Both the position numbers and the translations under genes were made by a program. Positions 1 through 14,674 of a stretch of 64,000 nucleotides of DNA are shown piece by piece. Numbering within the stretch: position 1 is the first letter of the stretch; each line of letters starts with the position of its first letter. This stretch comes from Candidatus Latescibacterota bacterium. GTDB lineage: Bacteria; Latescibacterota; UBA2968; UBA8231. The notes beneath the pieces are model-generated. The model was not told the DNA's origin. It made no database searches and saw only the letters and a list, made by a program, of their open reading frames with translations. The stretch spans positions 4,288,001 to 4,352,000 of the forward strand of contig OZ220089.1 of assembly GCA_964291625.2 (NCBI GenBank), given 5' to 3'.

Positions 1-1188
1 GCGGCGCCAGCCCTCGCCGGGCATGATGCGGCGCATGAACTGGTCGAAGAGGGGGACCGTGAAGGCGGTGTCGCCGTGGCCGGGGCTCCAGATCATGCCC
101 TTCGAGATCAGTTGGGCCCTCGCCGGCCCGAGGGAGGTGACCTTGAGACCCAAGGCCCGCGCGATGTCCCCCGAGCGATGCGGGCCGGGCCCCAGCTCCG
201 ACATGGCCCTCAGGTACCTCTTTTCCGAGGTGGTCAGGCGGTCGAACCGCACCCGGAAGAAGCCCTCGTCCAGAGCGGCGACGACTACGTTCGAGGCGCG
301 CTCGACGTCGGCGATCCCGATCGACGGGCCCGCCGCCACATCCCAGGAGTGCTTCCCCCACTCCTGAAGGAAGTACGGGTACCCGTGAGTCTCCTGAACG
401 ATGCGCTCCAGGGCGTCATCGTCGATGGTCACGCCTTCATCCTCGGCCGGCTTGACGATGGCCGTTCGGGCCGCCTCGGCTCCGAGCGGTCCGACCCGTG
501 GAAAGTCGAACAACCTCTCGGCGTATGACTTCGCCCTTCCGGTGCGGGCCCGGAGCTGCGGCAGGCCGGCTCCGACCATGACGACGGGCAACCGCCGCTG
601 GGCGGTCAGGTGCAGGGAGATGATCAGCGCCGCCAGCTCCTCCTCGTCGACGTACTGGAGCTCGTCGACGAACAGGGACAGCGCCGTCTCCGCCTCCCTG
701 GCCGCAAGACCGGCGGCCTCCAGCAACGCCTGCAGATCCATCTCGAGGTCGCCATTGTCGGCCAGGCCCGGCTCCGGCTCGAGATCGAGCCCCACCTCGA
801 TGTCCTGGTACTTCACCTTGAGAGCGGCGGCGAAGCCCGCCAGGCCCCTGAGCGCCCTGAGAGCGAGACCCTTCGCCTTCTCGTTGTTGGACAACTGGAG
901 CAGCGCCTGCCTCAACTGGGGAGCCAGCAGGGCGGGGAGAGAGCGATTATCCGGCGCCTCGACGGACAAGGTGCGGATACCGGCTGCCTGCGCGTCCACG
1001 CGCATGCTCTCGAGCAGCACGGTCTTGCCGACCCCCCTCAGGCCGACCATGAGAAGGCTCTTGGCCGGCCGGCCGAGTCTGATCCTGGCCAGCGCCACAC
1101 GGACGCTCTGGCGCAGGTCGTCCCGGCCTGCCAGCTGGGGCGGAGGCGTGCCGGCCCCGGGAGCGTAGGGGTTCCTGATCGGATCCAT
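1..1188 (-). CDS. AAA-family ATPase (AAA_16-like), 3' end runs off the window
   Basis: Not in the ORF track. Manual minus-strand translation from ATG 1188 gives MDPIRNPYAPGAGTPPPQLAGRDD...GLRGVGKT (Walker A); the same frame reads FTVPLFDQFMRR near base 1. Confidence 0.85.
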   Translation of the reverse strand, partial: MDPIRNPYAPGAGTPPPQLAGRDDLRQSVRVALARIRLGRPAKSLLMVGLRGVGKTVLLESMRVDAQAAGIRTLSVEAPDNRSLPALLAPQLRQALLQLSNNEKAKGLALRALRGLAGFAAALKVKYQDIEVGLDLEPEPGLADNGDLEMDLQALLEAAGLAAREAETALSLFVDELQYVDEEELAALIISLHLTAQRRLPVVMVGAGLPQLRARTGRAKSYAERLFDFPRVGPLGAEAARTAIVKPAEDEGVTIDDDALERIVQETHGYPYFLQEWGKHSWDVAAGPSIGIADVERASNVVVAALDEGFFRVRFDRLTTSEKRYLRAMSELGPGPHRSGDIARALGLKVTSLGPARAQLISKGMIWSPGHGDTAFTVPLFDQFMRRIMPGEGWRR

Positions 1189-1201
1189 GGCCGCCGATTA
1201 T

Positions 1202-1260
1202 GGGGAGTTTAGGCGATTATGTCAATATTATGTCATAACCAAAATTTTGCTAACTTCCCC
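1202..1260. promoter_or_regulatory. AT-rich divergent promoter/operator region
   Basis: Direct repeat ATTATGTCA at 1216-1224 and 1227-1235, flanked by imperfect inverted repeat GGGGAGTTTAG (1202-1212) / CTAACTTCCCC (1250-1260). Confidence 0.4.
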
Positions 1261-1384
1261 CAAACTACCGGCCACAGGGAGGTGCGCCGCGTCCCTGGAG
1301 TCCCCGGAGACCCGCCCCCGCAGGAACCGCCCCTGGTTGCGGAACGTCGGCTGGCCGGGCATATTGGCCGTGAACGGAGCCGAG

Positions 1385-1762
1385 ATGAGAATCCCCCGAG
1401 CCATCGCGCTGGCAGTGCTCGTCGCGGCGCTGCCGGCCAGCAGCGTCGCCGCCGCGGCGGACTGCTCGCCGTGCGCGCTGGCGGTGGCGGCCCCCGGCTG
1501 CCACGCGCCCGCGGCGGCTGACTCCGAGCAGCTCCGGTCCGCCTGCTGCTGCGCCGCCCTGAGCTGCGCCGACGATTCCCGACCTTCCGCCGATCCCGCT
1601 CCAACCTGGCTGCCCTCCGGCCCCGGGACCTCCGCCACCCCTCCCGCGGGCCCGCCGGTCCAGGCCCTCCGCGCCGCGGACCACGAGCCTGTCGCACCAG
1701 GGCCCCCGCCCCGGGCCGCCAAGGTCCCCCTCTACGCGCTCCACGGCATCTACCTGATCTGA
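1385..1762 (+). CDS. Cys-rich, Pro-rich leader/uORF protein with signal peptide (DUF2946/CruR-like architecture)
   Basis: MRIPRAIALAVLVAALPASSVAAAA signal, CSPC, CH and CCC..SC clusters, C-terminal PPPRAAKVPLYALHGIYLI; lies directly upstream of a metal efflux operon. Confidence 0.7.
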   Translation: MRIPRAIALAVLVAALPASSVAAAADCSPCALAVAAPGCHAPAAADSEQLRSACCCAALSCADDSRPSADPAPTWLPSGPGTSATPPAGPPVQALRAADHEPVAPGPPPRAAKVPLYALHGIYLI

Positions 1763-1903
1763 TCCTTCTCCGCTCTCGCCGCGCCCGCGGGCACGGCGCA
1801 GAGCCGCATCGAGCGATGCGCTGGCCGGGCCGGCCCCTCAGGGCCAGGCCGCGTGGCCGCGCATGTTGCGTACCGGTCCGACGCCGGAAACAGGAGAAGG
1901 AGA
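1763..1903 (+). promoter_or_regulatory. Structured intergenic leader with anti-SD
   Basis: TCCTTCTCC (1763-1771) is the exact reverse complement of GGAGAAGGA (1893-1901), the SD region of cusC; a GC-rich hairpin spans 1772-1804. Confidence 0.55.
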
Positions 1904-3163
1904 ATGCACCGGAGAGCTATCTGCGCCGCGGTCGTGGCCCTGGCCGCCGCGGCGCCCGCGGAACCCCCTGAGCTGGACCTCGACCTCCTGATCGAGGAGG
2001 CCCTCACCTCGAACCTGTCGCTGCAGGTGCTGAAGCACGGCTCTGCCGCCGCCCGGTCGGCGGTCCCGGCGGCCGGGGCCCTGCCCGACCCGGGGCTGAA
2101 GGTCGAGCTGAGCAACGTCCCCTTCCGCCCCCTCGACATCGACGGCTCGCCCATGAGCGGCCGCCAGCTCATGCTCTCCCAGAAGCTGCCCTACCCGGGG
2201 AAGCGGGCGGCCCGGGAGCGCGCCGCCTCCCACGCGGCGGCCGCCGCCGAGGCCGCCCGCCAGGAGCGCGAGGCGACCGTCGTCAACCTGGTGAAGCAGG
2301 CCTGGTTCGACCTGGATCTCCTCGACCGCTCGATCGCCATCACCGGGAGGAACCGGGACCTGCTGCGGGACTTCGTGCGCATCGCCCGGACGAAGTACTC
2401 CGTGGGGCGGGTGCCGCAGCAGGATGTGCTCAAGGCCCAGGTGTCCCTGTCGAGCCTGCGCCGGCGCCTGCTGCACATGGAGGGGGAGCGGCGGCGGACG
2501 GCGGCGCGGCTCAACACCCTGCTGGACCGGGATCCCCGCGAGCCGGTGGGCCGCATCCCGGCCCGGGAGCAGACGCCCCTGGAGTTCGAGGCGGTCCGGC
2601 TGCTGGAGCTGGCCCTGGACGGGCGGCCCCTGCTCGAGGGCCTGCGCCTGGGCCGGGAGCGCTGGCGCGCCGCCGAGGAGCTGGCCGTCCTCGACCGGCG
2701 GCCCGACTTCCAGGTGAACGCCGGCTGGCGCCAGCGCGGCTTCGAGGACGATCCCGTCTCGGGCAGCGACTTCTTCTCCGTGGGGGTGATGATGACCCTG
2801 CCCGTCTACAAGGGGCGCAAGCAGGATTCCCGGATCGCCGAGGCGAGGGCGCGGGTCCGGGAGGCCGAGGCCCGCATCGAGGCCGAGATCCGCGAGCTGG
2901 CGCTGCGGATCGAGGAGCTCCACGTCGACGCCGAGACCCACCTGCGGGAGATGGCCCTCTTCCGGGACGTCATCATCCCCCAGGCCGACCAGTCCCTGGC
3001 CGCGGCGGTCGCCGGCTACCAGGTGGACGAGGTCGACTTCCTCACCCTCCTCGACAACCAGATGACCCTGCTGGAGTTCGAGATCGACTACCATCGCCAC
3101 CTGTCGCAGTACGAGAAGAGCCTGGCCCACCTCGAGTCCGTCGTCGGCCGGCGGCTCTTCTGA
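1904..3163 (+). CDS. cusC: TolC/CusC-family outer membrane efflux protein
   Basis: Signal peptide, ALPDP and SQKLPYPGKR motifs, AGYQVDEVDFLTLLD C-terminus; strong SD before ATG 1904. Confidence 0.9.
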   Translation: MHRRAICAAVVALAAAAPAEPPELDLDLLIEEALTSNLSLQVLKHGSAAARSAVPAAGALPDPGLKVELSNVPFRPLDIDGSPMSGRQLMLSQKLPYPGKRAARERAASHAAAAAEAARQEREATVVNLVKQAWFDLDLLDRSIAITGRNRDLLRDFVRIARTKYSVGRVPQQDVLKAQVSLSSLRRRLLHMEGERRRTAARLNTLLDRDPREPVGRIPAREQTPLEFEAVRLLELALDGRPLLEGLRLGRERWRAAEELAVLDRRPDFQVNAGWRQRGFEDDPVSGSDFFSVGVMMTLPVYKGRKQDSRIAEARARVREAEARIEAEIRELALRIEELHVDAETHLREMALFRDVIIPQADQSLAAAVAGYQVDEVDFLTLLDNQMTLLEFEIDYHRHLSQYEKSLAHLESVVGRRLF

Positions 3164-3179: not shown

Positions 3180-4550
3180 ATGTGGAAATACGCGATCGCC
3201 GTGATCCTGTCCCTGGCCGCCGGCACCGCCTTCGGCCTCTGGCTGGGCGGCGCCGGCGCGGGGGCGGGAGCGATGCACGCCCACCAGGAAGAGGCCGACG
3301 TCCACCGCTGCCCCATGCACCCCACCGTCGTCTCCGAGGGGCCGGGAAGCTGCCCGGTCTGCGGCATGGACCTGGTGGCCGACGAGCCGGCGCCGAGCAG
3401 CGCCTCCGGCGGGGAGCGCGCCGTCGCCTACTGGCGGGCGCCGATGGACCCGTCGTACACCTCCCACGAGCCGGGCCAATCGCCCATGGGCATGGACCTG
3501 GTGCCGGTCTACGAGGACGAGCTGCAGGCCGAGGGCACGGTGACGATCGACCCGGCGACGGTGCAGAACATCGGCGTCAGGACGGCGCCGGTGGAGCGCC
3601 GGCCCCTGCACCGCACGGTGCGCACCGTGGGCCGCGTCGACTACGACGAGACGCGCATGACCGACGTCAACACCAAGATCGCCGGCTGGGTGGAGCAGCT
3701 CTTCGTCGACTACACGGGTCAGATGGTGGAGAAGGGGGAGCCCCTGCTGCAGATCTTCAGCCCGGAGCTGGTGGCCGCCCAGGAGGAGTACCTCACCGCC
3801 GTCGACTACAGCGAGCGCCTGATGGCCGGCGGCGGGGGCGAGGTCGTGACCGGGGCCCGGGACCTGCTGTCGGCGGCGCTGCAGCGGCTGCGCTACTGGG
3901 ACATCAGCGACCGCCAGATCGAGGAGCTGCGGCAGACGGGGGAGGCGCGGCGCACCATGACCGTGCACTCGCCCCAGCAGGGCACGGTGGTCCACAAGGC
4001 GGTCCTCGACGGCCAGCACATCGGCCCGGGGCAGCACCTCTACCGCATCGCCGAGCTGTCGCGGGTGTGGGTCTACGCCGACGTCTACGAGTACGAGCTG
4101 CCGTGGGTGCGGGAAGGGCAGGAGGCCGAGGTCGAGCTCTCCTACCTGCCGGGCCGGACCTTCACCGGCAAGGTCACCTACGTCTATCCCTTCCTCGAGC
4201 CGGAGACGCGGACCGTCAAGGTGCGCATGAGCTTCGCCAACCCCGAGCTGGAGCTGAAGCCGGAGATGTACGCCAACGTCACCATCCGCTCGCCCCTGCC
4301 GGCCGACAGCGTCCTCACGGTCCCGGTGCAGGCGGTGATCCACTCCGGTCCGCGCCGACTGGCCGTGATCAGCCTCGGCGAGGGCCGCTTCCAGCCCCGG
4401 GAGATCCGCGTCGGCGCCGAGGCGGAGGGCTTCTACGAGGTCCTGGAGGGCCTGCGTGAAGGGGAGCGGATCGTCACCTCGGCCCAGTTCCTCATCGACT
4501 CGGAGAGCAACCTGAAGGCGGCGGTCAGCTCCCTGGGGGAGGGGACGTGA
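3180..4550 (+). CDS. cusB: RND periplasmic adaptor, CusB family, with heavy-metal-binding repeats
   Basis: CPMHP..PGSCPVCGMDL and YWRAPMDP..SPMGMDLVPVY motifs; LKPEMYANV; AQFLIDSESNL. Confidence 0.93.
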   Translation: MWKYAIAVILSLAAGTAFGLWLGGAGAGAGAMHAHQEEADVHRCPMHPTVVSEGPGSCPVCGMDLVADEPAPSSASGGERAVAYWRAPMDPSYTSHEPGQSPMGMDLVPVYEDELQAEGTVTIDPATVQNIGVRTAPVERRPLHRTVRTVGRVDYDETRMTDVNTKIAGWVEQLFVDYTGQMVEKGEPLLQIFSPELVAAQEEYLTAVDYSERLMAGGGGEVVTGARDLLSAALQRLRYWDISDRQIEELRQTGEARRTMTVHSPQQGTVVHKAVLDGQHIGPGQHLYRIAELSRVWVYADVYEYELPWVREGQEAEVELSYLPGRTFTGKVTYVYPFLEPETRTVKVRMSFANPELELKPEMYANVTIRSPLPADSVLTVPVQAVIHSGPRRLAVISLGEGRFQPREIRVGAEAEGFYEVLEGLREGERIVTSAQFLIDSESNLKAAVSSLGEGT

Positions 4551-7500
4551 TGATCGGGCGCATCATCGAGGCCTGCGTCAACAACAAGCTGCTCACGGTG
4601 CTGGTGACCCTGCTGGCCGCCGGCGCCGGCTTCCTCGCCATGTCCGACACCCCCCTCGACGCCATCCCCGACCTGTCGGACGTGCAGGTGATCGTCCTTA
4701 CCGAGTACCCGGGGCAGGCGCCCCAGGTGGTGGAGGACCAGGTGACCTTCCCCCTGAGCACGGCGATGCTGGCCGTGCCCTACGCCAAGGCGGTGCGGGG
4801 GTACTCCTTCTTCGGCCTCTCCTTCGTCTACGTCATCTTCGAGGACGGCACCGACATGTACTGGGCGAGGAGCCGCGTCCTCGAGTACCTCAGCTTCGCC
4901 GGCGACCGCCTCCCCGAGGGGGTGCAGCCGCGGCTCGGTCCCGACGCCACCGGCGTCGGCTGGGTCTACGAGTACGCCCTCGTCGACACCAGCGGCCGCC
5001 GCGACCTCGCCGAGCTGCGCTCGATCCAGGACTGGTACCTGCGCTACGAGCTGACCAGCGTGCCCGGCGTCGCCGAGGTGGCCAGCATCGGCGGCTTCGT
5101 CAAGCAGTACCAGGTGACGGTCGACCCCAACAAGCTGCTGGCCTACGGGGTCTCGCTGCAGCAGGTGAAACGCGCCATCCAGCGCAGCAACAACGACGTC
5201 GGCGGCCGCCTCATCGAGCTGGCCGAGACCGAGTTCATGGTGCGCGGCCTCGGCTACATCCGTTCCGTCGAGGACATCCGCGAGGTGCCCGTGAGCGCCG
5301 GCCGCTCCGGCACCCCGGTGCGGGTGCGGGACATCGCCACCGTGCAGGTGGGGCCCGAGCTGCGCCGCGGCCTGGCGGAGTGGAACGGCGAGGGGGAGGT
5401 GGCCGGCGGCATCGTGGTCATGCGCTACGGCGAGAACGCCCTGGCCGTGATCGACGCCGTCAAGGCGAGGCTCGCCGAGCTGCAGGACGGCCTGCCGGAA
5501 GGGGTGGTGGTGGAGACCGCCTACGACCGCTCCGGCCTCATCCGCCGCGCCGTGGGCCACCTGCGCGAGAAGCTGGTGGAGGAGTGCCTGGTGGTGGCCG
5601 CCGTCTGCGGGCTCTTCCTGCTCCACTTCCGCAGCGCCTTCGCCGCCGTCTTCACCCTGCCCCTGGGCATCCTCGTCGCCTTCATCGTCATGTGGGGCCA
5701 GGGGATCAACGCCAACATCATGTCCCTCGGGGGGATCGCCATCGCCGTGGGGGCCATGGTCGACGCCGGTATCGTGCAGATCGAGAACGCCCACCGCCAC
5801 CTGGCGCGGGACCGGGGCCGCAAGGACCACTGGGCGATCATCGCCGCCGCCTCCAAGGAGGTGGGGCCGGCCCTGTTCTTCTCCCTCCTCATCGTCACCC
5901 TCTCCTTCCTGCCCGTCTTCACCCTGGAGGCCCAGGAAGGGCGGCTCTTCAAGCCCCTGGCCTACACCAAGACCTACGCCATGGCCGCCGCGGCCCTGCT
6001 GTCGATCACGGTGGTGCCCGTGCTCATCGGCTTCTGCCTGAAGGGGCGGGTCGTCGACGCCGACCGCAATCCGCTCAACCGGGTTCTGACGCGGGGCTAC
6101 GGGCCGGTCCTGGACTGGCTGCTGCGCCACAAGGCCGCCACCCTGGCCGCCGCCGCGGCGGTGATGTTCGTGTCGGTGTTTCCCTTCCGCAGCGTGGTGG
6201 TGGAGCGCTTCGCCGAGCGGCCCGGCAGCCTGGCGCACACGGCGCTGTCCCGCCTGCAGGGGCTCTTTCCCCTGGAGCAGATCGGCTCGGAGTTCATGCC
6301 GCCCCTGTACGAGGGGGACCTGCTCTACATGCCGACCACCCTGCCCGGGGTCTCGGTGACCAAGGCGCGGGAGCTGCTGCAGCAGACCGACCGCATCATC
6401 CGCACCTTCCCGGAGGTGGAGAACGTCTTCGGCAAGATCGGCCGCGCCGAGACCGCCACCGACCCGGCGCCCCTGTCGATGATCGAGACCACCATCACCC
6501 TGAAGCCGCAGGACCAGTGGCGGCCGGGCATGACCCCGCAGAAACTGGTGGAGGAGCTGGACCGGGCGGTGCGCTTCCCGGGGCTGACCAACGCCTGGAC
6601 GATGCCGATCAAGACGCGCATCGACATGCTCTCCACCGGCATCAAGACCCCCGTGGGCATCAAGGTAGCCGGCGACGATCTCGAGACGCTGGAGGAGGTG
6701 GGCCGGCGGATCGAGCAGGTGGTGCGGGAGATCCCGGGCACGGCCAGCGTCTACGCCGAGCGGGTCGCCGGCGGCAACTACGTCGACTTCGAGATCGACC
6801 GCGAGGAGGCCGGGCGCTACGGCCTGACGGTGGGGGACGTGCAGGAGGTGATCCTGTCGGCCATGGGCGGCATGAACATCACCCACACCGTGGAGGGCCG
6901 CGAGCGCTACCCGGTGAACCTGCGCTACGGGCGGGAGCTGCGCGACAACCTGCCCGCCCTGAGGCGGGTCCTGGTGGCCACGTCCACGGGGGCCCAGATC
7001 CCCATCGGGCAGGTCGCCGACCTGCGCATCCGCAAGGGGCCGCCCGGCATCAAGAGCGAGAACGCCCGCCTCAACGCCTGGGTCTACGTCGACATCCGCG
7101 ACGTCGACGTGGGCACCTACGTCGAGCGCGCCCGCCAGATCGTGGCCGAACGGATCGACCTGCCCCAGGGATACAGCCTGATCTGGAGCGGCCAGTACGA
7201 GTACATGGAGAGGGCCAAGGAGCGGCTGAGCCTCGTCGTGCCGGTCACCCTGGCCATCATCTTCCTGCTCCTCTTCCTCCACTTCCGCAGCGTCGTGGAG
7301 AGCCTCATCGTCATGCTCACCCTGCCCTTCGCCCTGGTGGGCGGGATCTGGCTCATCTACATCCTGGACTACAACATGAGCGTCGCCGTGGGCGTGGGTT
7401 TCATCGCCCTCGCCGGGGTCAGCGCCGAGCTCGGGGTGGTGATGCTCACCTACCTCGACCAGGCCCTGGAGGCCCGCCGCACCGAAGGCCGGCTCGAGGA

Positions 7501-7798
7501 CCGGGCCGATCTCGCCGCCGCCATCGTCGAGGGGGCGTCCCGGCGCGTGCGCCCGATCTTCATGACCGTGGGTTCGACGGTGGGCGGTCTGCTGCCGATC
7601 ATGTGGGCCACGGGCGCCGGGTCGCAGGTGATGAAGCGGATCGCCGCGCCCATGGTGGGCGGGCTGGCGACGGCTACACTTCTGGCGCTGCTGGTGTTGC
7701 CGGCCGTATATGCGCTGTGGCGTGGTTTCCAGATGCGCGGCGGCACGGAACCGACAACGGATGCACACACCCCCGAGGAAGGAGTGACAGCAGCATGA
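4547..7798 (+). CDS. cusA: CusA/SilA heavy-metal RND permease
   Basis: 1083 aa; PLDAIPDLSDVQVI, SLGGIAIAVGAMVDA, SEFMPPLYEGDLLYMP, TDPAPLSMIET, KRIAAPMVGG. Confidence 0.96.
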   Translation: MMIGRIIEACVNNKLLTVLVTLLAAGAGFLAMSDTPLDAIPDLSDVQVIVLTEYPGQAPQVVEDQVTFPLSTAMLAVPYAKAVRGYSFFGLSFVYVIFEDGTDMYWARSRVLEYLSFAGDRLPEGVQPRLGPDATGVGWVYEYALVDTSGRRDLAELRSIQDWYLRYELTSVPGVAEVASIGGFVKQYQVTVDPNKLLAYGVSLQQVKRAIQRSNNDVGGRLIELAETEFMVRGLGYIRSVEDIREVPVSAGRSGTPVRVRDIATVQVGPELRRGLAEWNGEGEVAGGIVVMRYGENALAVIDAVKARLAELQDGLPEGVVVETAYDRSGLIRRAVGHLREKLVEECLVVAAVCGLFLLHFRSAFAAVFTLPLGILVAFIVMWGQGINANIMSLGGIAIAVGAMVDAGIVQIENAHRHLARDRGRKDHWAIIAAASKEVGPALFFSLLIVTLSFLPVFTLEAQEGRLFKPLAYTKTYAMAAAALLSITVVPVLIGFCLKGRVVDADRNPLNRVLTRGYGPVLDWLLRHKAATLAAAAAVMFVSVFPFRSVVVERFAERPGSLAHTALSRLQGLFPLEQIGSEFMPPLYEGDLLYMPTTLPGVSVTKARELLQQTDRIIRTFPEVENVFGKIGRAETATDPAPLSMIETTITLKPQDQWRPGMTPQKLVEELDRAVRFPGLTNAWTMPIKTRIDMLSTGIKTPVGIKVAGDDLETLEEVGRRIEQVVREIPGTASVYAERVAGGNYVDFEIDREEAGRYGLTVGDVQEVILSAMGGMNITHTVEGRERYPVNLRYGRELRDNLPALRRVLVATSTGAQIPIGQVADLRIRKGPPGIKSENARLNAWVYVDIRDVDVGTYVERARQIVAERIDLPQGYSLIWSGQYEYMERAKERLSLVVPVTLAIIFLLLFLHFRSVVESLIVMLTLPFALVGGIWLIYILDYNMSVAVGVGFIALAGVSAELGVVMLTYLDQALEARRTEGRLEDRADLAAAIVEGASRRVRPIFMTVGSTVGGLLPIMWATGAGSQVMKRIAAPMVGGLATATLLALLVLPAVYALWRGFQMRGGTEPTTDAHTPEEGVTAA

Positions 7799-8136
7799 AA
7801 CGCCTGAAGACCCGAGGGAAAGCCGTCATCGCCGTTGCGGCGGTCGCTGCGGTCCTGGCCGTCGGCGGCTATTTCCTGCAGGGAGAGAGCCAGCCGCCTC
7901 CCCTGCCCGCGGACGGACTCGCCCTCTACCAGACCTTGCTGAGGGAGATCCCGGAGGTTGTGAGCCAGGTGCCGTGCGCCTGCTGCAACCAGAGTCTCTC
8001 CTGGTGCTACGAGGGAGGGTGTCCCCCCACCTGACGGCAGTGCAACGAAGAGGGCCGTGACGCCTTCAAGTGGCACCACGAGGGAAAGGACATCGAGGAG
8101 ATCAAGGAGCTGATCCTGGCGAAGTACTTCCATTGA
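7795..8136 (+). CDS. Probable selenoprotein, PCYCGC-motif-like membrane-anchored protein with UxxC (113 aa if UGA 8032-8034 is read as Sec)
   Basis: ATG overlaps the cusA stop; VPCACCNQSLSWCYEGGCPPT-TGA-RQCNEEGRDAFKWHHEGKDIEEIKELILAKYFH-stop, ending 17 nt before copA. Confidence 0.75.
8035..8067 (+). promoter_or_regulatory. Candidate bacterial SECIS element
   Basis: Stem GAGGGC (8050-8055) / GCCTTC (8062-8067) with loop CGTGAC; loop starts 21 nt after the UGA and has G at position 2. Confidence 0.55.
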
Positions 8137-8153
8137 GGGAGGCCTGACCGCCG

Positions 8154-10448
8154 ATGACCATCAGCGCAGAGAAGCAGGCCGCTCCGGCCGGCGACCCCAC
8201 GACCATCTCCCTGAGCATCGGCGGCATGACCTGCGCCGCCTGCGTCGGCCACGTCGAGGCAGCGCTGCGCGGCGTCGAGGGAGTGGAATCCGCGGCCGTG
8301 AACCTGGCCACCGAGCGGGCCACCGTCCGCTGCAGGACGGACCTGGCCGGCATCGAGGACCTGAGATCCGCCGTCGAGGACGAGGGGTACTCCGTGCTGG
8401 AGGTGGGTACGGGCGCGGACGCTTCGGGGCACCGGGGAGAGGCCGCCGGGATTCGCGGAGAGATGGCTCTCAGCCTCGCGGTTGCGGCGGTCGTCATGCT
8501 GCTGCCCAAGGTGCCGTCCCTGCTCGCCGTCCTGCCCGTCCGCCTCGACATCCTGCTGCTCCTCCTCGCGACGCCCGTGCAGTTCTGGGCCGGCAGAGGG
8601 TTCTACGCCGGGGCGTGGAAGGCCCTCCGCCGAGGCACGAGCAACATGAACACGCTCATCGCGGTCGGTACGACCGTGGCCTACGCGTACAGCGCCGCGG
8701 TCACCCTCTTCCCCCATGCTTCGGCGTTCGCCCACTACGAAGCGGCGACCTTCTTCGAGACCTCGACCGCGATCATCGGGCTCGTGCTTCTCGGCCGCTA
8801 CCTGGAAGCTCGGGCCAAGGGCCGGGCCTCCGAAGCGATCAAGGCCCTCCTGACCCTGCGCCCGGAGCGGGCCACGGTCATTCGCGGCGGCAGGGAAGTG
8901 GAGGTCCCGATCGAGGATGTCGGGGTCGGCGAGCAGGTCCGGGTTCTCCCCGGGGAGCGCATCCCGGTGGACGGCAAAGTGGCGGCCGGCGAGTCCTGGG
9001 TCGACGAGTCCCTGCTGACGGGCGAGAGCATGCCGGTGCGGAAGGGGGAGCAGGACGAGGTGTACGGAGCGACGATCAACACCACGGGGAGTCTGACCCT
9101 CGAAGCAGTGGGCGTCGGCGCCGACACCCTGTTGGCGCGCATCGTCCGGCTGGTGGAGGAAGCACAAGGATCGAGGGCGCCCGTGCAGAGACTGGCGGAT
9201 GTCGTATCGAGCTGGTTCGTGCCCGCCGTCATCGCCGTGGCAGCGGTCGTCTTCCTCCTCTGGCTGTCCGTCGGGCCTTCGCCGTCCCATGTCTATGCGA
9301 TGGTGGCGGCCGTCGCCGTGCTGATCATCGCCTGCCCCTGTGCCATGGGCCTGGCCACGCCGACGGCGATCATGGTGGGCACGGGCCGGGCCGCGGAGTC
9401 GGGGGTGCTGATTCGCAGCGCCGAGGCCCTGGAGCGGGCCCATGAGACCGAGGTCGTGGTGCTGGACAAGACGGGCACGCTGACCACGGGCGTTCCGAAG
9501 GTGACGGACATCGTCGCGAGCGGCCTCACGGAGGACGAGCTCCTGACCCTGGCGGGCCGGCTCGAGCGCGCCTCCGAGCATCCCGTGGGGAGGGCGATCG
9601 TCGCGGCGGCGCAGGAGCGGGGTCTTCCCGTGGAAGCCCCGGTGCACACATCCAGGGCCGTGCCCGGGATGGGCATCGTGGGTGAAGTCGACGGCCGCCG
9701 CGTCGCCGTAGGAAGCCTCCGGCTCGGCGAGGAGGCCGGGTTCACCAGGAACAGCCTCGCGGAGACCGGCCAGGAGCTGGCACGCGCAGCGAAGACGGTC
9801 TCCTACGTGGCCGTCGACGGCGAGGTCATGGGCGTGATCGCCGTCGCCGATACGGTCAAGGAGGGGATCGAGGAGGCCCTGGACTCGCTGAGGGGTCAGG
9901 GCGTCGAGGTGCTCATGCTGACCGGAGACAGTCGGCGGACGGCCGAGGCGGTGGCCCGCTCTCTCGGCATGGAGAAGGTCATCGCCGAGGTGCTGCCGGC
10001 GGACAAGGCCGACCACGTTGCGGCCCTGCAACAGGACGGGACGGTGGTGGCCATGGTCGGAGACGGCATGAACGATGCGCCGGCCCTGGCGCGGGCGGAC
10101 GTGGGCATCGCCGTGGCCACGGGAACCGACATCGCCATGGAGGCGGCCGACATAACCCTCATCCACGGGGACATCATGGGCGTGGCCCGCGCGATCTCCG
10201 TCAGCAGGGAGACGATGAGAACCATCCGGCAGAACCTGTTCTGGGCGTTCGCCTACAACGTCGCGCTGATTCCCGTGGCGGCAGGGGTCCTGTATCCGGT
10301 GTTCGCCGCCCAGGGAGTGCCGGAGGCGCTTCGCCCGGTACTCGGGGAGTTCGGATTCCTCAACCCCATACTGGCGGCGGGAGCGATGGCCGTGAGCTCC
10401 GTCAGCGTGATCGCGAACTCACTGAGACTGAAGCGGATCAGGCTCTGA
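8154..10448 (+). CDS. copA: Cu(I)-translocating P1B-type ATPase
   Basis: GMTCAAC metal-binding domain, [28 protein letters not shown] and MAVSS motifs. Confidence 0.96.
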
Positions 10449-10451
10449 CCC

Positions 10452-12347
10452 ATGACCCGGATCGAAGCGAACGTCCCCTTTGTCGAGCCGCCCGAATGGG
10501 CCCTGCTCGAGCGCAGCCTCATGGACCTGATGGACGACGCCGTCGCCCCGGTGATGGAGCGCTACGTCCACGCCGACGGCTCGGTCATGTGGCCCACGCG
10601 GGAGGACTTCACCGGCATCGACGGTCTGGACGACGCCTACGAGAGCTTCCACAACTGGCCCCTCTTCTACCTGATGGGAGGAGGGGACCACCTGCTCGAT
10701 CACTCCCACCTCGCCTGGGAGGGGATCACCCGCCAGTTCAGCCGCTACGACACCGGCCACGGACACCCGATGGTGGTCAAGGAGTACGAGCAGGGGTACG
10801 ACTGGATGCACCAGGGGGAGGGGTACGCCTTCTTCTACAACCTTTGCCTCGCCGATCCGGGAAACGAGCGCAACGCCGAGAGGGCGAAACGTTACGCCGG
10901 GTTCTACCTCAACGAGGACCCGGAGGCGCTCAACTACGATCCGGAAAAGAGGCTCATCAAGTGCGCCCACAACGGATCGATGGGCCCGGCCTTCCGCAAC
11001 TTCGACAGGCACTACACCGTCTACCGCTATGACCAGTGGAAGCCCTGGCCCCTGCCCTTCCACGACCTGCCCGGCATCGACTCGGTCGAGGATCTCCGGA
11101 AGCCGGGCATGGAGGAGCTGATGGGGCGCACCCTCGTCGAGCGCATGGGCCGCGGCGACGTGGCCACCAACCTCGGCGCCACCACCCTCGTCACCAACAC
11201 GTACCTGTTCGGGGGCGAGGCGAAGTACCGCGACTGGGTGGTGGAGTACACGGAAAGCTGGATGGAGCGCACCCGACAGAACGGCGGCGTCATCCCCGAC
11301 AACGTCGGCCTCTCGGGGAAGGTCGGGGAGTACATCGACGGCAAGTGGTGGGGCGGCTACTACGGCTGGACCTGGCCCCACGGCTGGCACCTGATGGCCG
11401 ACGCGGTGACCGCCGCCGCCGAGAACGCGGCCCTCATGTGCCGCGACCCCGGGTACATGGAGTTCCCGCGCTCGCAGATCGACCTGCTCATGGAGCAGGG
11501 GGAGAGGCGCGGCTCCACCCTGTACGCGCCCCATCACTACCACGACAAGGGATGGGACGGGTACGCGCCCATGCACCCGGCGCCGATGACCCACATCTGG
11601 CAGATGACGATGGGCGGCGCCGACGCGGACCGGCTCGTGCAGCAGCGCAACCACGAGTCCGAGGACTGGCGGCGGGTCCGCTCCCACGGCTCCAAGCACG
11701 GCGCCGGCCACGAGGCCGCCTGGTTCGCCTGGCTGCGGGGGGAGTATCCCGGGTTCCCCCTCGACATCCTGCGCCACAACCACGCCCAGGTGCACCAGCG
11801 GCTGGCCTTCATGGGCGACGACCGCCAGGACCCGGCCACCTACGGCGACTGGTACCTCCAGGTGCGCAACCCCGTCACCGTGGAGGCGCTGCTGCAGCTG
11901 ACCATGGGAGGGCCGCTATACCTCTACAACGGCGGCCTGCAGATGGCGCGGCTGCGCTACTTCGATTGCCAGCGCCGCCGCCCCGGACTGCCGCGCGACG
12001 TCGCCGCTTTGGTGGAGGTCCTGGAGGACGATCGTGTGGTGGTGCAGCTGGTGAACCTGAGCGCCACCGAGCCGCGGGAGATGGTCGTGCAGGCCGGGGT
12101 CTTCGGGGAGCACCGCTTCACCAGTGCTTCCTGGCAGCAACGACGCCCTCTGAGCGCCGAGGAGGCCGCCGCCGGCCAGACGCACGAGGAGCAGTTCCGG
12201 GGGGTGGTCCAGGGGCAGCTGGAGGAGCGGAGGGAGGAGGTGAACGGACGGTGGTTCACGGTGGGGCTGGCGCCGGGGGCGGGGATCCGGCTGGATTTGG
12301 GGATGGAGCGGTTCGCCAACGGGCCGTCGTACTCGCTGCCTTGGTAG
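10452..12347 (+). CDS. Conserved hypothetical 631-aa protein, aromatic-rich (possible alpha/alpha-barrel lyase or hydrolase)
   Basis: Long ORF with host-like codon bias, rich in W/Y/H (DDAYESFHNW, YDWMHQGEG, WWGGYYGWTWPHGW). Confidence 0.75.
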   Translation: MTRIEANVPFVEPPEWALLERSLMDLMDDAVAPVMERYVHADGSVMWPTREDFTGIDGLDDAYESFHNWPLFYLMGGGDHLLDHSHLAWEGITRQFSRYDTGHGHPMVVKEYEQGYDWMHQGEGYAFFYNLCLADPGNERNAERAKRYAGFYLNEDPEALNYDPEKRLIKCAHNGSMGPAFRNFDRHYTVYRYDQWKPWPLPFHDLPGIDSVEDLRKPGMEELMGRTLVERMGRGDVATNLGATTLVTNTYLFGGEAKYRDWVVEYTESWMERTRQNGGVIPDNVGLSGKVGEYIDGKWWGGYYGWTWPHGWHLMADAVTAAAENAALMCRDPGYMEFPRSQIDLLMEQGERRGSTLYAPHHYHDKGWDGYAPMHPAPMTHIWQMTMGGADADRLVQQRNHESEDWRRVRSHGSKHGAGHEAAWFAWLRGEYPGFPLDILRHNHAQVHQRLAFMGDDRQDPATYGDWYLQVRNPVTVEALLQLTMGGPLYLYNGGLQMARLRYFDCQRRRPGLPRDVAALVEVLEDDRVVVQLVNLSATEPREMVVQAGVFGEHRFTSASWQQRRPLSAEEAAAGQTHEEQFRGVVQGQLEERREEVNGRWFTVGLAPGAGIRLDLGMERFANGPSYSLPW

Positions 12348-12670: not shown

Positions 12671-14674
12671 CTATTCCTCGCTGATCCCGTTCTCTTGGAG
12701 AAGGTCCACTACATCTCTTCTGCCCATTTCTTTGGCCAAACTCAAGGGTGTCTTGCCACTATTCGTCTGAGCGCTAATATCGGCCCCTCTATCCACAAGA
12801 AGGCGCACCACATCTATCTCCCTCCCCATGGTGGCTGCGTGTAAGGCCGTCTCGCCGTGCCCGTCTTGGATGTGGATGTCGGCCCCACTGTCCACCAGGA
12901 ACCGCACCGTCTCTACATCACCCCCAGTGGAGGACGAACCTGCGGCTATCATCAAGGGTGTCCGGCCGCGCTTCGTCTGAGCGTGGATATCAGCCCCCCG
13001 CTCTACCAGAAAACGAACGACCCCTACTCCCCGGGCCCAGTGCAAAGCCGTCTTTCCGTCGGTATCTTGGGCATTGACATCAGCTCCTTTGTCCACCAAG
13101 AAATGCGCCATTTCCACATAGCTCCGAGCAGCGGCTTGCATCAAGGGCGTCCTGCCGCTCTTCGTCTGAGCATGGATGTCGGCCCCTCGGTCCACGAAGA
13201 AACTCGCCATCTCCAAACGGTTCCACTCCACGGCCTTGATCAGGACTGAAAGACTCCGAGCCTGGGCATCCGCGCCGTTTTCCACCAAGAATCGCACCAT
13301 CTCCATATCACCCCGAGCGACAGCCCCCGTCAAGGCCGTCTCGCCGTGTCTGTCCAGGACGAGGACGTCGGCGCCATGGCCCACCAAGAGACGCACAATC
13401 CTTATATCGTCCGGGTCGGCGCCTTCCAATTTTTCCAACTCGGCGGCCAAGTGCAAGGCCGTCCTGCCGTGCCTGTCCTGGGCGTTGATATCGACCCCGC
13501 TATCCACCAGAAACCGTACGATCTCTACATCTCCATTCTGGGCAGCCAACATTAGAGCCGTCCCACGATTGGATCGGGCGTTGACATCAGCACCGTGGGT
13601 CACCAAGAAGCGTACCATCTCTGCATCATTCTCAGCAACAGCTCCCATCAAGACCGTCCAGCCGTCGTCTGCCTGGGCGGTGATGTCAGCGCCGTTGTCC
13701 ATCAGAAACTGCACCATTTTCAAATCGCCGCTCATAGCAGCCCAGTGCAAGGCCGTATTACCGTCCTTGGTTTGGGCCTGTCCACCGGCTTCTGCCACCC
13801 AGCGTCCCACCAGGAAACGCACCACCTCCAAATGCCCAACTCCTACCTCGGGAACTCCTGTGGCAGCCGAGTGCAGGGCCGTTCTGCCGGCGTCATCCTG
13901 GGCGTCTATGTCGGCTCCGTTATCCACCAAGAAGCGTACAGTTTCTAGAGAGCCCTCCGAGGCGGCCGACATCAGAGCGGTCAAGCCCCAATCAGTTTGG
14001 GCGTTGATGTCAGCGCCGTTGCCCACCAGGAAGCGCACTACTTCTACTTTATCATCATCGACCAGGAAACCGCCGGCAGCAGACATCAGGGCTGTAAGAC
14101 CGTCGTCAGTTCGAGTGTGGATATCGGCGCCGTTGTTTACCAGGAATTGCACTATCTCATAGCTTCGTCCGGCGGCCCGGTCCAATGCCGTACTTCCTCT
14201 ATCGTCTTGAGCGTTGATATCGGCACCAATTTCCACCAAGAAGCGCACTGTCTCTAAACGTGCAAATCTGGCACCGGACATCAAAGCCGTGTTGCCACGG
14301 TCATTTCGGGCGTTCTTGTTGGCACCGTTGTCCACTAGAAACTGCACAATCTCCAAATGGCCAGCCGCGGCGGCCGACATCAGGGCCGTCGTACCGTTTC
14401 CAGTTGGGGCGTGGATTGCCATTCCTGCATCCCTGAATAGCTGTACAGCGAACAGGTCCCCCTGCCTCACGCCGTCAAAGAAGGAAGACTGTGTAGTCTG
14501 AATCCCCCGCTCACTCAGCTCTCTGCGAGCCTGCTCAGGGGTTCGGGGGTGGTAGGAGTCGCCAGGTGGATCCGGCATGTACGCCTTACCTCCGCTGTCC
14601 TCACCAGCCACGGCACTCCCTAGCCACAGGCCGATTAGGCCGATCACACCTGCCCCACTCTCCCAGCTCTTCAT
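12671..14674 (-). CDS. Secreted ankyrin-repeat protein (about 18 repeats)
   Basis: Repeated GxTALxxAA...VRFLVxxGADIxAQ units; N-terminal signal-like segment; SD AAGGAGGAGG; visibly lower GC than the flanks. Confidence 0.95.
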   Translation of the reverse strand: MKSWESGAGVIGLIGLWLGSAVAGEDSGGKAYMPDPPGDSYHPRTPEQARRELSERGIQTTQSSFFDGVRQGDLFAVQLFRDAGMAIHAPTGNGTTALMSAAAAGHLEIVQFLVDNGANKNARNDRGNTALMSGARFARLETVRFLVEIGADINAQDDRGSTALDRAAGRSYEIVQFLVNNGADIHTRTDDGLTALMSAAGGFLVDDDKVEVVRFLVGNGADINAQTDWGLTALMSAASEGSLETVRFLVDNGADIDAQDDAGRTALHSAATGVPEVGVGHLEVVRFLVGRWVAEAGGQAQTKDGNTALHWAAMSGDLKMVQFLMDNGADITAQADDGWTVLMGAVAENDAEMVRFLVTHGADVNARSNRGTALMLAAQNGDVEIVRFLVDSGVDINAQDRHGRTALHLAAELEKLEGADPDDIRIVRLLVGHGADVLVLDRHGETALTGAVARGDMEMVRFLVENGADAQARSLSVLIKAVEWNRLEMASFFVDRGADIHAQTKSGRTPLMQAAARSYVEMAHFLVDKGADVNAQDTDGKTALHWARGVGVVRFLVERGADIHAQTKRGRTPLMIAAGSSSTGGDVETVRFLVDSGADIHIQDGHGETALHAATMGREIDVVRLLVDRGADISAQTNSGKTPLSLAKEMGRRDVVDLLQENGISEE

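Follow-up and report, generated by a model that had tools for sequence, protein, structure and literature searches.

In Escherichia coli, the CusCFBA system includes CusF, a β-barrel protein with Met/His/Trp ligands that is reported to take Cu(I) from CopA and give it to CusB. Heavy-metal proteins containing selenocysteine (Sec) have been catalogued, among them a UxxC cation-transporting ATPase (HMA domain), a UxxU metal-binding protein and CopZ-like forms. The CYCXC family protein (OS_HP4; PF13798), with one Sec in a UxxC motif, is listed in two reviews (PMC13188914 and PMC9312934). None of the matches in a full-text literature search for "PCYCGC" gives a function, and no copper link for the PF13798 family was found in print; one published PCYCGC member is described as sitting beside an Fe3+-binding protein. 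A literature search for a selenoprotein with CusA and SECIS returned nothing relevant.

The window, by which we mean the whole stretch of 64,000 nucleotides that was analysed, contains an operon with the gene order OEP, CusB, CusA, selenoprotein gene and CopA (Table 1). The "heavy-metal (Cus) type" label of the RND pump is a probable one, given the operon in which the pump is encoded and the CusB-type adaptor that goes with it. The ATG of the small gene (7795-7797) shares bases with the TGA that ends the gene of the RND pump (4547-7798) and lies 10 nt 3′ of an AGGAG at 7780-7784, and its translation is probably coupled to that of the cusA-type gene. The in-frame TGA at 8032-8034 has the context C-P-P-T-U-R-Q-C, the read-through part ends in the tail G-K-x-I-E-E-I-K-x-L-I-x-x-K-Y-F, and the terminal TGA (8134-8136) is followed by GGGAGG and then by the copA ATG at 8154. 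The sequence-level statements of an earlier note on this DNA, among them the position of the in-frame TGA, the 33-codon extension and the hairpin, were all correct.

Table 1. Features of the operon and of the predicted selenoprotein gene, with positions counted in the window.
Feature	Position	Strand	Basis or remark
Outer-membrane factor, CusC-type	1853..3163	+	PF02321, 166 bits; same operon
CusB-type periplasmic adaptor, N-terminal heavy-metal-binding domains	3180..4550	+	PF16576, 282 bits; PF19335; TIGR01730 above cut-off
CusA-type RND pump	4547..7798	+	PF00873, 761 bits
ATGA overlap, gene start / cusA-type stop	7795..7798	+	Read directly from sequence
Predicted selenoprotein gene	7795..8136	+	113 codons including UGA-80, then terminal TGA 8134-8136
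Hydrophobic N-terminal segment, residues 10-28 after five Lys/Arg	7822..7878	+	Reading of sequence
Cys/Sec cluster C61, C63, C64, C71, C76, U80, C83	7975..8043	+	Alignment
In-frame UGA, predicted selenocysteine U80, first residue of UxxC	8032..8034	+	TGA/Cys conservation in homologues
33 sense codons past the UGA	8035..8133	+	Encode predicted helices after U80 and C-terminal tail
SECIS-like element	8040..8076	+	Consensus fold, one covarying pair, frozen synonymous sites
CopA, copper-translocating P1B-type ATPase	8154..10448	+	TIGR01511, 593.7 bits (cut-off 397); HMA, E1-E2 ATPase and hydrolase domains

The apparent stop of this small protein, encoded between two copper pumps, is almost certainly decoded as selenocysteine. 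In a survey of 168 genomes of the phylum, a match was found in 16, and 12 of these 16 carriers kept the TGA and the downstream frame. A search of 61 relatives likewise gave a match in 16 genomes, with TGA and full-length downstream similarity in nine of them. Sec forms accounted for 13 of 17 public loci, including MAGs of Planctomycetota and Ignavibacteria. In an alignment of 36 sequences, TGA was present in all 11 Sec forms, and the corresponding column was occupied by Cys in all 25 non-TGA homologues and never by Trp or Gly; four genomes of the same genus have the Cys-form motif C-P-[VL]-[SN]-C-G-P-C. Downstream of the UGA and outside the hairpin, the per-site differences at codon positions 1, 2 and 3 were 0.30, 0.27 and 0.56, similar to the values upstream (0.31, 0.19 and 0.59), and the read-through frame was free of stops in nine of nine sequences. 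By this comparison, the codons past the UGA evolve as coding sequence, under purifying selection.

The genome contains selA, selB, selC and selD, all above curated cut-offs. SelA scored 454.6 bits and SelB 341.6 bits (cut-off 242), the tRNA-Sec (74.2 bits, anticodon TCA) adjoins selB/selA, and selD is itself Sec-containing, with its own in-frame TGA. SelA was found in five of five Sec-form genomes and also in five of five genomes that have a Cys form or no such gene, and the loss of the Sec machinery is therefore ruled out as the cause of the Cys forms.

The hairpin begins its apical loop 21 nt past the UGA. Its lower stem pairs 8040-8046 with 8070-8076, and its upper stem of 6 bp pairs GAGGGC (8050-8055) with GCCUUC (8062-8067) around the apical loop C-G-U-G-A-C (8056-8061), a small loop of 6 nt that contains a G, as is looked for in a SECIS element. 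In the genome's own selD, too, the SECIS stem is rich in G+C, and the loop, GGUC, contains GU and lies 17 nt past the UGA of that gene. An Rfam scan of positions 7700-8300 at E ≤ 10 found no SECIS family, the lone match being "hya" at chance level (E 9.5). As a single sequence the fold was not significant (−16.8 kcal/mol, z = −1.04, with 28 of 200 shuffles folding equally well), and comparative data were therefore used instead. It was found that all 11 Sec-form genes, the G+C contents of whose loci span 46-69%, have an identical or compatible upper stem. Of seven invariant degenerate amino-acid columns within the structure, four (C47, G51, A54 and F55) showed no codon variation among the 11 genes, and at one more 10 of the 11 shared a codon, whereas none of 23 control columns outside the structure had a single codon. 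One pair of the lower stem covaried (CG in 6, UA in 3 and UG in 2), and compensatory change in the hairpin was limited to this base pair. The hairpin was the MFE structure in eight of nine Sec forms and in none of four Cys forms, from all four of which it was missing. Because the residues that it overlaps, E-G-R-D-A-F, are strictly conserved, constraint on the protein could account for part of the conservation of the hairpin; nevertheless, the comparative data indicate that its conservation exceeds chance.

The earlier note had also related the protein to the PCYCGC proteins. This kinship was borne out at the superfamily level, but the protein passes neither of the two family models. PF13798 (gathering score 25 bits) gave no match at E ≤ 1 for the protein and none in the whole genome. 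NF041379 matched along almost its whole length (positions 21-89 of 90, E 9e-10), but the score of the read-through protein was 38.5 bits against a curated equivalog cut-off of 90, and a six-frame genome search with this model gave 33.8 bits at the same gene. In place of the C-Y-C-x-C signature of NF041379 the protein carries C-A-C-C, and in our alignment the C-x-C-G-C form is confined to remote relatives. In contrast to the protein itself, the profile of its clade reached proteins that pass PF13798 (P0063, P0065, P0067 and P0068, at 25-35 bits). Relatives of P0065 in Gemmatimonadaceae and Gemmatimonadales MAGs bear the NCBI name "PCYCGC motif-containing (lipo)protein", and a homologue search with P0065 returned Cys-type PF13798 proteins only, none of them named as a selenoprotein. 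In the ESM Atlas, the leads from a natural Cys-form relative were to CYCXC/PCYCGC clusters and stayed below threshold (score 0.81).

In relatives scoring 54-73 bits, none of which is a certified Sec-containing member, U80 is aligned with the first Cys of their only CxxC. The 168 genomes of the phylum had no NF041379 member above the cut-off (E ≤ 1e-8), and therefore it is from the sole CxxC of these relatives that we infer that the Sec columns of the clade and of OS_HP4 coincide. On these alignments and profiles, the protein does not found a new family but belongs to the PCYCGC/CYCXC (OS_HP4) superfamily, of which it forms a divergent branch (CxCC ... CPPxUxxC). The CxCC/CPPxUxxC clade is new here, and the family, although absent from the annotation, is already in the literature as the UxxC selenoprotein OS_HP4/CYCXC.

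The hydrophobic N-terminal segment may be a signal-anchor or a signal peptide that puts the Cys/Sec domain outside the cytoplasm; the sequences of some relatives read as having lipobox-like or twin-arginine-like N-termini. Six of the seven columns of the Cys/Sec cluster were invariant in all 36 aligned sequences, and C76 was invariant inside the Sec and the Cys clades. The AF2 model (pLDDT 98) is all-helical, and one of its predicted helices has U80 as the N-cap. At its N terminus the product would thus have a signal sequence or a membrane anchor, and outside the cytoplasm an all-helical domain of 77 residues, with six invariant Cys-type positions, one clade-specific Cys and Sec at the first position of UxxC, capping the N terminus of a predicted helix.

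We also identified a weak CcmH-like fold signal that is new here. The family profile searched against PDB sequences found E. coli CcmH with E 0.068, and the best Foldseek match of the model was the CcmH periplasmic domain 2hl7 (TMq 0.54, E 1.5, probability 0.47), with 2kw0 third. When the 36-sequence alignment was compared by hhalign with 15 CcmH-family proteins of related genomes, the probability was 77% (E 2e-5, 57 columns), and the U column fell on a conserved Cys; with an alignment of the clade only, the value was 13%. PF03918 (CcmH) did not match the protein, and the genome search with this model matched another locus only, where the genome has a separate CcmH-family gene.

Genes for CusA and/or CopA were found in the flanks of 13 of the 17 loci, a linkage to cusCBA and/or copA that is new here, and such a neighbour was absent at the other 4, which counts against a copper role. 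A search of the genome, which is 95% complete, did not find CusF (PF11604), and the selenoprotein has no Pfam match to this family. One relative has a His-rich tail. Prediction of a complex between a natural Cys-form domain and its own CusB gave no answer (score 0.00) and is neutral on binding. The gene neighbourhood and the motif suggest a role of the selenoprotein in copper handling, whereas the nearest fold and profile signals are to CcmH, which is no metal carrier but a thiol-disulfide oxidoreductase, and the known ligands in the well-studied periplasmic carriers of Cu(I) are Met/His rather than Cys.

The best explanation of the locus, and one that we hold to be very probable, is a 113-residue selenoprotein of a divergent PCYCGC/CYCXC branch in which UGA-80 is decoded as Sec by SelB/tRNA-Sec and the hairpin. 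In the proposed mechanism, the hairpin, 18-35 nt past the UGA and with the loop CGUGAC, would recruit SelB/tRNA-Sec so that UGA-80 is read as Sec; the selenolate/thiolate pair, with the Cys cluster in support, would bind Cu(I); and the bound Cu(I) would be handed to the CusB/CusA efflux machinery, filling the role of E. coli CusF. Cu(I) binding with handover to CusB/CusA is the most likely function, but we put it forward tentatively, at a little under an even chance, from context only. A wider proposal, that the clade is a selenium-based replacement of CusF, membrane-tethered, with a CcmH-like fold and made in step with CusA, which would feed periplasmic Cu(I), including that expelled by CopA, into CusCBA, is speculative and on balance doubtful.

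These readings have to be weighed against three others. If the TGA truly ended translation, had arisen by nonsense mutation or sequencing error, or were recoded as Trp or Gly, the product would have 79 residues or a standard amino acid at this position. Gene callers do end the protein one residue before the TGA in 26 of 29 database matches, one record reads W, and Rfam has no SECIS match. This reading is already contradicted by the comparative data, in which 12 genomes of the phylum, and members of other phyla as well, have the same TGA, the frame beyond it is under purifying selection, and its column holds Cys in the homologues; with the Sec machinery complete in the genome, we give it hardly any weight. 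Recoding in particular conflicts with the use of TGA as the terminator of cusA and of the selenoprotein gene itself, which, together with the Cys in the homologues, rules out an alternative genetic code. The UxxC selenoprotein hidden behind the stop, as it had been proposed from the letters of the window, is thus upheld by the conserved TGA, the Cys homologues, the coding conservation downstream, the SECIS-like hairpin and the full Sec machinery.

The other two readings accept the selenoprotein and differ on what it does. As a CcmH-like periplasmic selenol/thiol-disulfide oxidoreductase rather than a metal carrier, it would cycle U80xxC83 between the selenylsulfide and the reduced state, and it would repair wrong disulfides made by copper catalysis or keep copper or pump ligands reduced. 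The profile, Foldseek and hhalign matches to CcmH and the place of U80 at the helix N-cap favour this, as does the GOS survey, in which 33 of 51 prokaryotic selenoprotein families are given as thiol oxidoreductase homologues or Trx-like in fold. However, each of the three CcmH signals is weak, the genome already has its separate CcmH-family gene, and the tight coupling to cusA is left unexplained by an oxidoreductase alone; moreover, a canonical CcmH needs two Cys, and six positions are invariant here. We consider this reading possible but unlikely. It is considerably less probable, and in our judgement improbable, that the cluster holds a fixed cofactor (Fe-S, Zn or a CopG-like polynuclear copper cluster) and that the protein serves the pump as an accessory subunit, for electron transfer or in a structural role. 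The six invariant Cys-type columns lie inside about 25 residues, the clade-specific C-x-C-C resembles what we take to be the copper-cluster motif of CopG, and the N-termini of several remote relatives read as twin-arginine-like, which would suit the export of a cofactor-loaded protein (TIGR01409 reached only E 0.03, for P0068). On the other hand, no match to DUF411/CopG or to any Fe-S family was found in Pfam at E ≤ 1, the model is all-helical whereas CopG is described as thioredoxin-like, and the N terminus of the selenoprotein clade is a plain hydrophobic one and not twin-arginine.

The prediction that automatic annotation would truncate the protein was confirmed by the database entries. The truncation affects at least 23 clusters (50% identity), compared with seven full-length Cys clusters, so that the whole clade is systematically shortened at the Sec codon, and the curated (seleno)protein model NF041379 scores it too low to rescue it. 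For the PCYCGC/CYCXC superfamily, the clade, with its probable translational coupling to a copper/silver RND pump and its place beside CopA, supplies a definite context in which a function can be tested, and it would be a further example of selenium serving metal homeostasis in the envelope. There is also a hint that PCYCGC proteins and the thiol-disulfide oxidoreductases of the CcmH type are linked in evolution. If the proposed replacement of CusF were true, the copper tolerance of these bacteria would be selenium-dependent and the superfamily would have its first assigned role. To selenoprotein specialists the surprise will be modest, since UxxC forms of the superfamily and Sec in metal-binding motifs have already been catalogued.

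Compared with the known systems, the protein resembles OS_HP4/NF041379 in that its single predicted Sec lies in UxxC, ahead of a G-[RK] helix and a tail of the form G-K-x-x-x-E-I ... [KR]-[YF], and differs from it, beyond C-A-C-C for C-Y-C-x-C, in the extra Cys of its clade in G-x-C-P-P-x-U and in lacking an insert of about 5 residues after the first motif. It has six Cys columns in common with the PF13798 PCYCGC relatives, which are Cys forms of 130-170 residues. With CcmH/CycL/NrfF (PF03918; PDB 2hl7 and 2kw0) it shares a membrane-tethered, small helical periplasmic domain with a redox-type C/U-x-x-C at a helix start and then a G-[KQ]-S-x-x-x-I ... Y-G tail, but the signals of this likeness are all below the usual significance, six Cys are invariant in the selenoprotein clade compared with two in CcmH, and the setting is copper efflux rather than cytochrome c maturation. 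Its likeness to CusF is in function only, as a small extracytoplasmic protein encoded within a cusCBA-type operon, and a relation in sequence or fold is absent. The catalogued Sec heavy-metal proteins belong to unrelated folds and families, being cytoplasmic ferredoxin-like HMA domains, and they provide the precedent for Sec in place of a metal-binding Cys in copper and mercury handling.

The gene under study lies in a copper-efflux operon with the order outer-membrane factor, CusB-type adaptor, RND pump, selenoprotein gene, and copper P1B-ATPase. The preceding RND pump gene (cusA) has 1083 codons, and AGGAG is found 10 nt upstream of the start of the selenoprotein ORF, which encodes 113 residues when the in-frame TGA is translated as selenocysteine (U). 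An earlier note on this DNA had claimed that the frame stays open past this TGA and ends just before the copA SD, and it was found that 33 further sense codons run up to TGA 8134-8136, immediately 3′ of which lie GGGAGG and then, at 8154, the start codon ATG of the following gene. TGA is the terminator of both cusA and the selenoprotein gene.

Features of the copper-efflux operon and the selenoprotein gene (window positions)
Feature	Position	Strand	Remarks
Outer-membrane factor	1853-3163	+	PF02321
CusB-type adaptor with heavy-metal-binding domains	3180-4550	+	family searches
RND pump	4547-7798	+	PF00873
Selenoprotein ORF start (ATG)	7795-7797	+	ATGA overlap with TGA stop of the RND pump gene
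In-frame TGA	8032-8034	+	codon 80, context C-P-P-T-U-R-Q-C
Lower stem extending the hairpin	8040-8046 with 8070-8076	+	minimum-free-energy fold
Hairpin GAGGGC / CGUGAC / GCCUUC	8050-8067	+	loop starts 21 nt past UGA
Copper P1B-ATPase (copA)	8154-10448	+	TIGR01511, 593.7 bits vs cut-off 397

The protein has a basic N terminus followed by a 19-residue hydrophobic stretch, and its domain contains Cys at 61, 63, 64, 71, 76, and 83. Because of the positive N terminus and hydrophobic helix, and the lipobox-like or twin-arginine-like N termini of some relatives, this domain is probably extracytoplasmic. Among the remote relatives read by eye (database proteins P0064, P0065, P0067, P0068, P0072, P0033, and P0061), the N terminus is twin-arginine-like in four and has a lipobox-like Cys in several, and one relative carries a long His/Gly-rich C-terminal tail, hints that the export route, and perhaps cofactor loading too, may vary among superfamily branches.

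The selenocysteine components of the same genome were scored against curated cut-offs, and the check for selA, selB, selC, and selD proposed in the earlier note returned all four above these values, including SelA at 454.6 bits, SelB at 341.6 bits, and tRNA-Sec at 74.2 bits (anticodon TCA by ARAGORN). The genes selC (tRNA-Sec), selB, and selA adjoin on the minus strand within about 3.2 kb (C1:3423794-3426999). SelD (C1:1116503-1117309, locus L021) has its own in-frame TGA in the context C-G-U-A-A-K, with a SECIS consisting of a G+C-rich 8-bp stem and the loop GGUC, 17 nt past its UGA; the selD and selenoprotein hairpins are alike in their small loop with G-U.

Matches at E <= 0.01 were present in 16 of 61 related genomes: nine of these 16 (own genome included) had a TGA within a match reaching residue 112-113, four had a stop-free homologue that was 35-42% identical, and three had a weak match without the motif. 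A profile search of the phylum placed the gene in 16 of 168 genomes, one copy each and in one family-level group only, with the TGA in 12 carriers and absent from four. Public species-representative genomes yielded 17 confirmed loci, 13 with the TGA (Sec forms) and four with Cys in the U column (Cys forms), from records labeled as Gemmatimonadaceae, 'Latescibacterota', Planctomycetota, Ignavibacteria, or 'uncultured bacterium' MAGs. The stop-free homologues of the four related genomes have C-P-[VL]-[SN]-C-G-P-C in place of C-P-P-T-U-R-Q-C. When 11 Sec forms were aligned with 25 other sequences, the U column was Cys in all 25, as expected of a selenoprotein, and six Cys-type columns and one Gly were invariant. 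Pairwise comparison of nine non-redundant Sec forms gave mean differences (codon positions 1/2/3) of 0.31/0.19/0.59 on the 5′ side of the UGA and 0.30/0.27/0.56 on the 3′ side of the hairpin, a coding-type pattern in both regions, and the downstream frame was stop-free in all nine, the other two frames being mostly interrupted.

Within genus g1 (genomes G000-G009), four genomes have the Sec form and four a Cys form (about 35-40% identical), never both; G007 has neither and G008 only a weak fragment. SelA is kept in G001, G003, G005, G009, and G007 (Cys form or no gene) as well as in G002, G004, and G006 (Sec form). Sec and Cys forms appear to be alternative, displaced genes and not the outcome of a recent Sec/Cys point change.

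The hairpin reported in the earlier note is present, with a 6-bp stem and the loop CGUGAC. Taken as a single sequence, its fold (-16.8 kcal/mol, z = -1.04) does not stand out, with 28 of 200 shuffles doing as well, and no Rfam family matches the hairpin region. Although the loci range from 46-69% G+C, all 11 of their Sec forms retain the upper stem, with one position A-U in seven and G-U in four, and a lower-stem pair covaries (CG in six, UA in three, UG in two). The strongest SECIS signal is the freezing of synonymous sites, evaluated at 30 invariant degenerate amino-acid columns, seven within the structure and 23 outside. A single codon was used across the 11 genes at four of the seven structure columns (TGC, GGC, GCC, and TTC), and CGT in 10 of 11 genes at a fifth, compared with none of the 23 columns outside; a hand calculation that ignores relatedness gives 35/27405, or about 0.001. 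Where third positions do vary, the structure can accommodate it: that of GAR is paired with U, that of GAY falls in the loop, and that of AAY is one side of the covarying pair. In eight of nine Sec forms the hairpin is the minimum-free-energy structure, the ninth having the same letters and an alternative fold, and it is missing from all four Cys forms, in which the protein sequence differs too. Taken together, the machinery, orthologues, Cys pairing, coding pattern, and SECIS make it very unlikely that the TGA is a true stop or an error, that the gene is a pseudogene, or that a different code is in use.

The prediction that automatic annotation would truncate the protein was borne out in 26 of 29 close database records; one reads W and two are fragments. 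The ENA-derived record P0003 has W in the UGA column and then runs to the true C terminus, presumably a gene call under a TGA=Trp table.

The selenoprotein had no Pfam match at E <= 1 and one NCBIfam match, NF041379 'OS_HP4_CYCXC, CYCXC family (seleno)protein' (E 9.3e-10, model positions 21-89 of 90), whose 38.5 bits are under the equivalog cut-off of 90. A profile of its clade (the C-x-C-C/CPPxUxxC branch), searched against 1.84 billion representatives, matched 112 proteins at E <= 1e-3, 29 of them also at E <= 1e-10; 23 of the 112 stop exactly one residue before the U column, seven are full-length with Cys, and 82 are more remote. Ten were scanned with both libraries: all matched NF041379 at 22-74 bits, under its cut-off, and four remote proteins passed PF13798 (PCYCGC) at 25-35 bits. 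Relatives of P0065 (1232 at E <= 1e-5) have PF13798 and the NCBI name 'PCYCGC motif-containing (lipo)protein'. Therefore, from the below-cut-off NF041379 match and the reach of the clade profile to PF13798 members, the selenoprotein is assigned to a divergent branch of the known PCYCGC/CYCXC superfamily; the PCYCGC kinship put forward earlier holds at the superfamily level and not as a Pfam match of the protein itself. No certified OS_HP4 member was found in 168 phylum genomes at E <= 1e-8. Because superfamily relatives have a single CxxC, the Sec column is probably the same as in OS_HP4.

CusA and/or CopA homologues occur inside the fetched flanks at 13 of the 17 loci, with Sec and Cys forms alike, the usual place of the gene being directly 3′ of cusA, and the association with this context is real. 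At the other four loci the neighbors are, one locus each, a transposase with a weak DUF3347; a PhyH dioxygenase; glycosidases with a cyclase; and a hybrid kinase. In the window, a 631-codon ORF (10452-12347, +) begins 4 nt past the copA stop and has no Pfam or NCBIfam family; 425 of its residues match at 94.8% behind copA in another locus (L044), and it could be an operon member or a G+C-rich open frame over the minus-strand gene 10419-11795. Beyond it, a 667-residue ankyrin-repeat protein (12671-14674, -) has many matches to ankyrin-containing NCBIfam models, every one far under cut-off. Directly upstream of the operon, ORFs 401-1168 and 1187-1762 (+) have no Pfam or NCBIfam family, and the scan with these libraries identified no metal-sensing regulator beside the operon.

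An AlphaFold2 model from the 36-row alignment (mean pLDDT 98.0, pTM 0.87) predicts helices at domain residues 6-15, 17-20, 32-39, 45-59, and 64-75; Sec is domain residue 44 and therefore caps the long helix in this model. CcmH acts in cytochrome c maturation as a thiol-disulfide oxidoreductase of the periplasm that is tethered to the membrane. The top Foldseek PDB match was 2hl7, the periplasmic domain of CcmH (TMq 0.54, E 1.5, probability 0.47), with 2kw0 third; the family profile reached 2kw0 among PDB sequences at E 0.068; and hhalign against 15 CcmH-family proteins of related genomes gave 77% (E 2e-5) with the broad alignment and 13% with the clade-only alignment. From these three weak signals, remote homology to CcmH is a lead with roughly even odds. 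Most PF03918 (CcmH) proteins of the related genomes (loci L060-L079) have C-L-C-G-x-C ... C-x-C, which recalls the PCYCGC motif and hints that the two families may be related; a minority in the phylum have an S-P-Y-C-P-G type site instead.

The operon context suggests that the selenoprotein acts on copper. In the reading we favor, to which we give a little under an even chance, it is a putative Cu(I)/Ag(I) carrier: the U80/C83 pair would carry the ion, which would be handed to CusB/CusA in the otherwise missing role of CusF, since no CusF (PF11604) was found across the own genome (95% complete). Prediction of a complex between a natural Cys form and the CusB of that form's own locus gave no answer and is neutral for binding. 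A CcmH-like selenol/thiol oxidoreductase, to which the CcmH signals belong, is somewhat less likely, and a fixed metal-cluster subunit is improbable.

A UxxC selenoprotein within this superfamily is already catalogued, a table in a 2022 review containing 'Hypothetical protein OS_HP4, UxxC' and another review tabulating the CYCXC family protein (OS_HP4) with PF13798, the motif UxxC, and one Sec; OS_HP abbreviates 'Olavius symbiont hypothetical protein', and the tables of the source paper give OS_HP1 to OS_HP3. As far as the accessible full text and reviews extend, a literature search found neither the C-x-C-C/CPPxUxxC clade nor its fixed SECIS, its Sec predominance (23 vs. 7 Cys clusters), its cusCBA/copA linkage, or its CcmH-like signal. 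The clade and the PCYCGC/CYCXC superfamily have in common six Cys columns, a G-[RK] helix, and a G-K-x-x-x-E-I...[KR]-[YF] tail, whereas the clade has C-x-C-C where the superfamily has C-x-C-G-C, carries one more Cys (G-x-C-P), and lacks the insert that follows the first motif.
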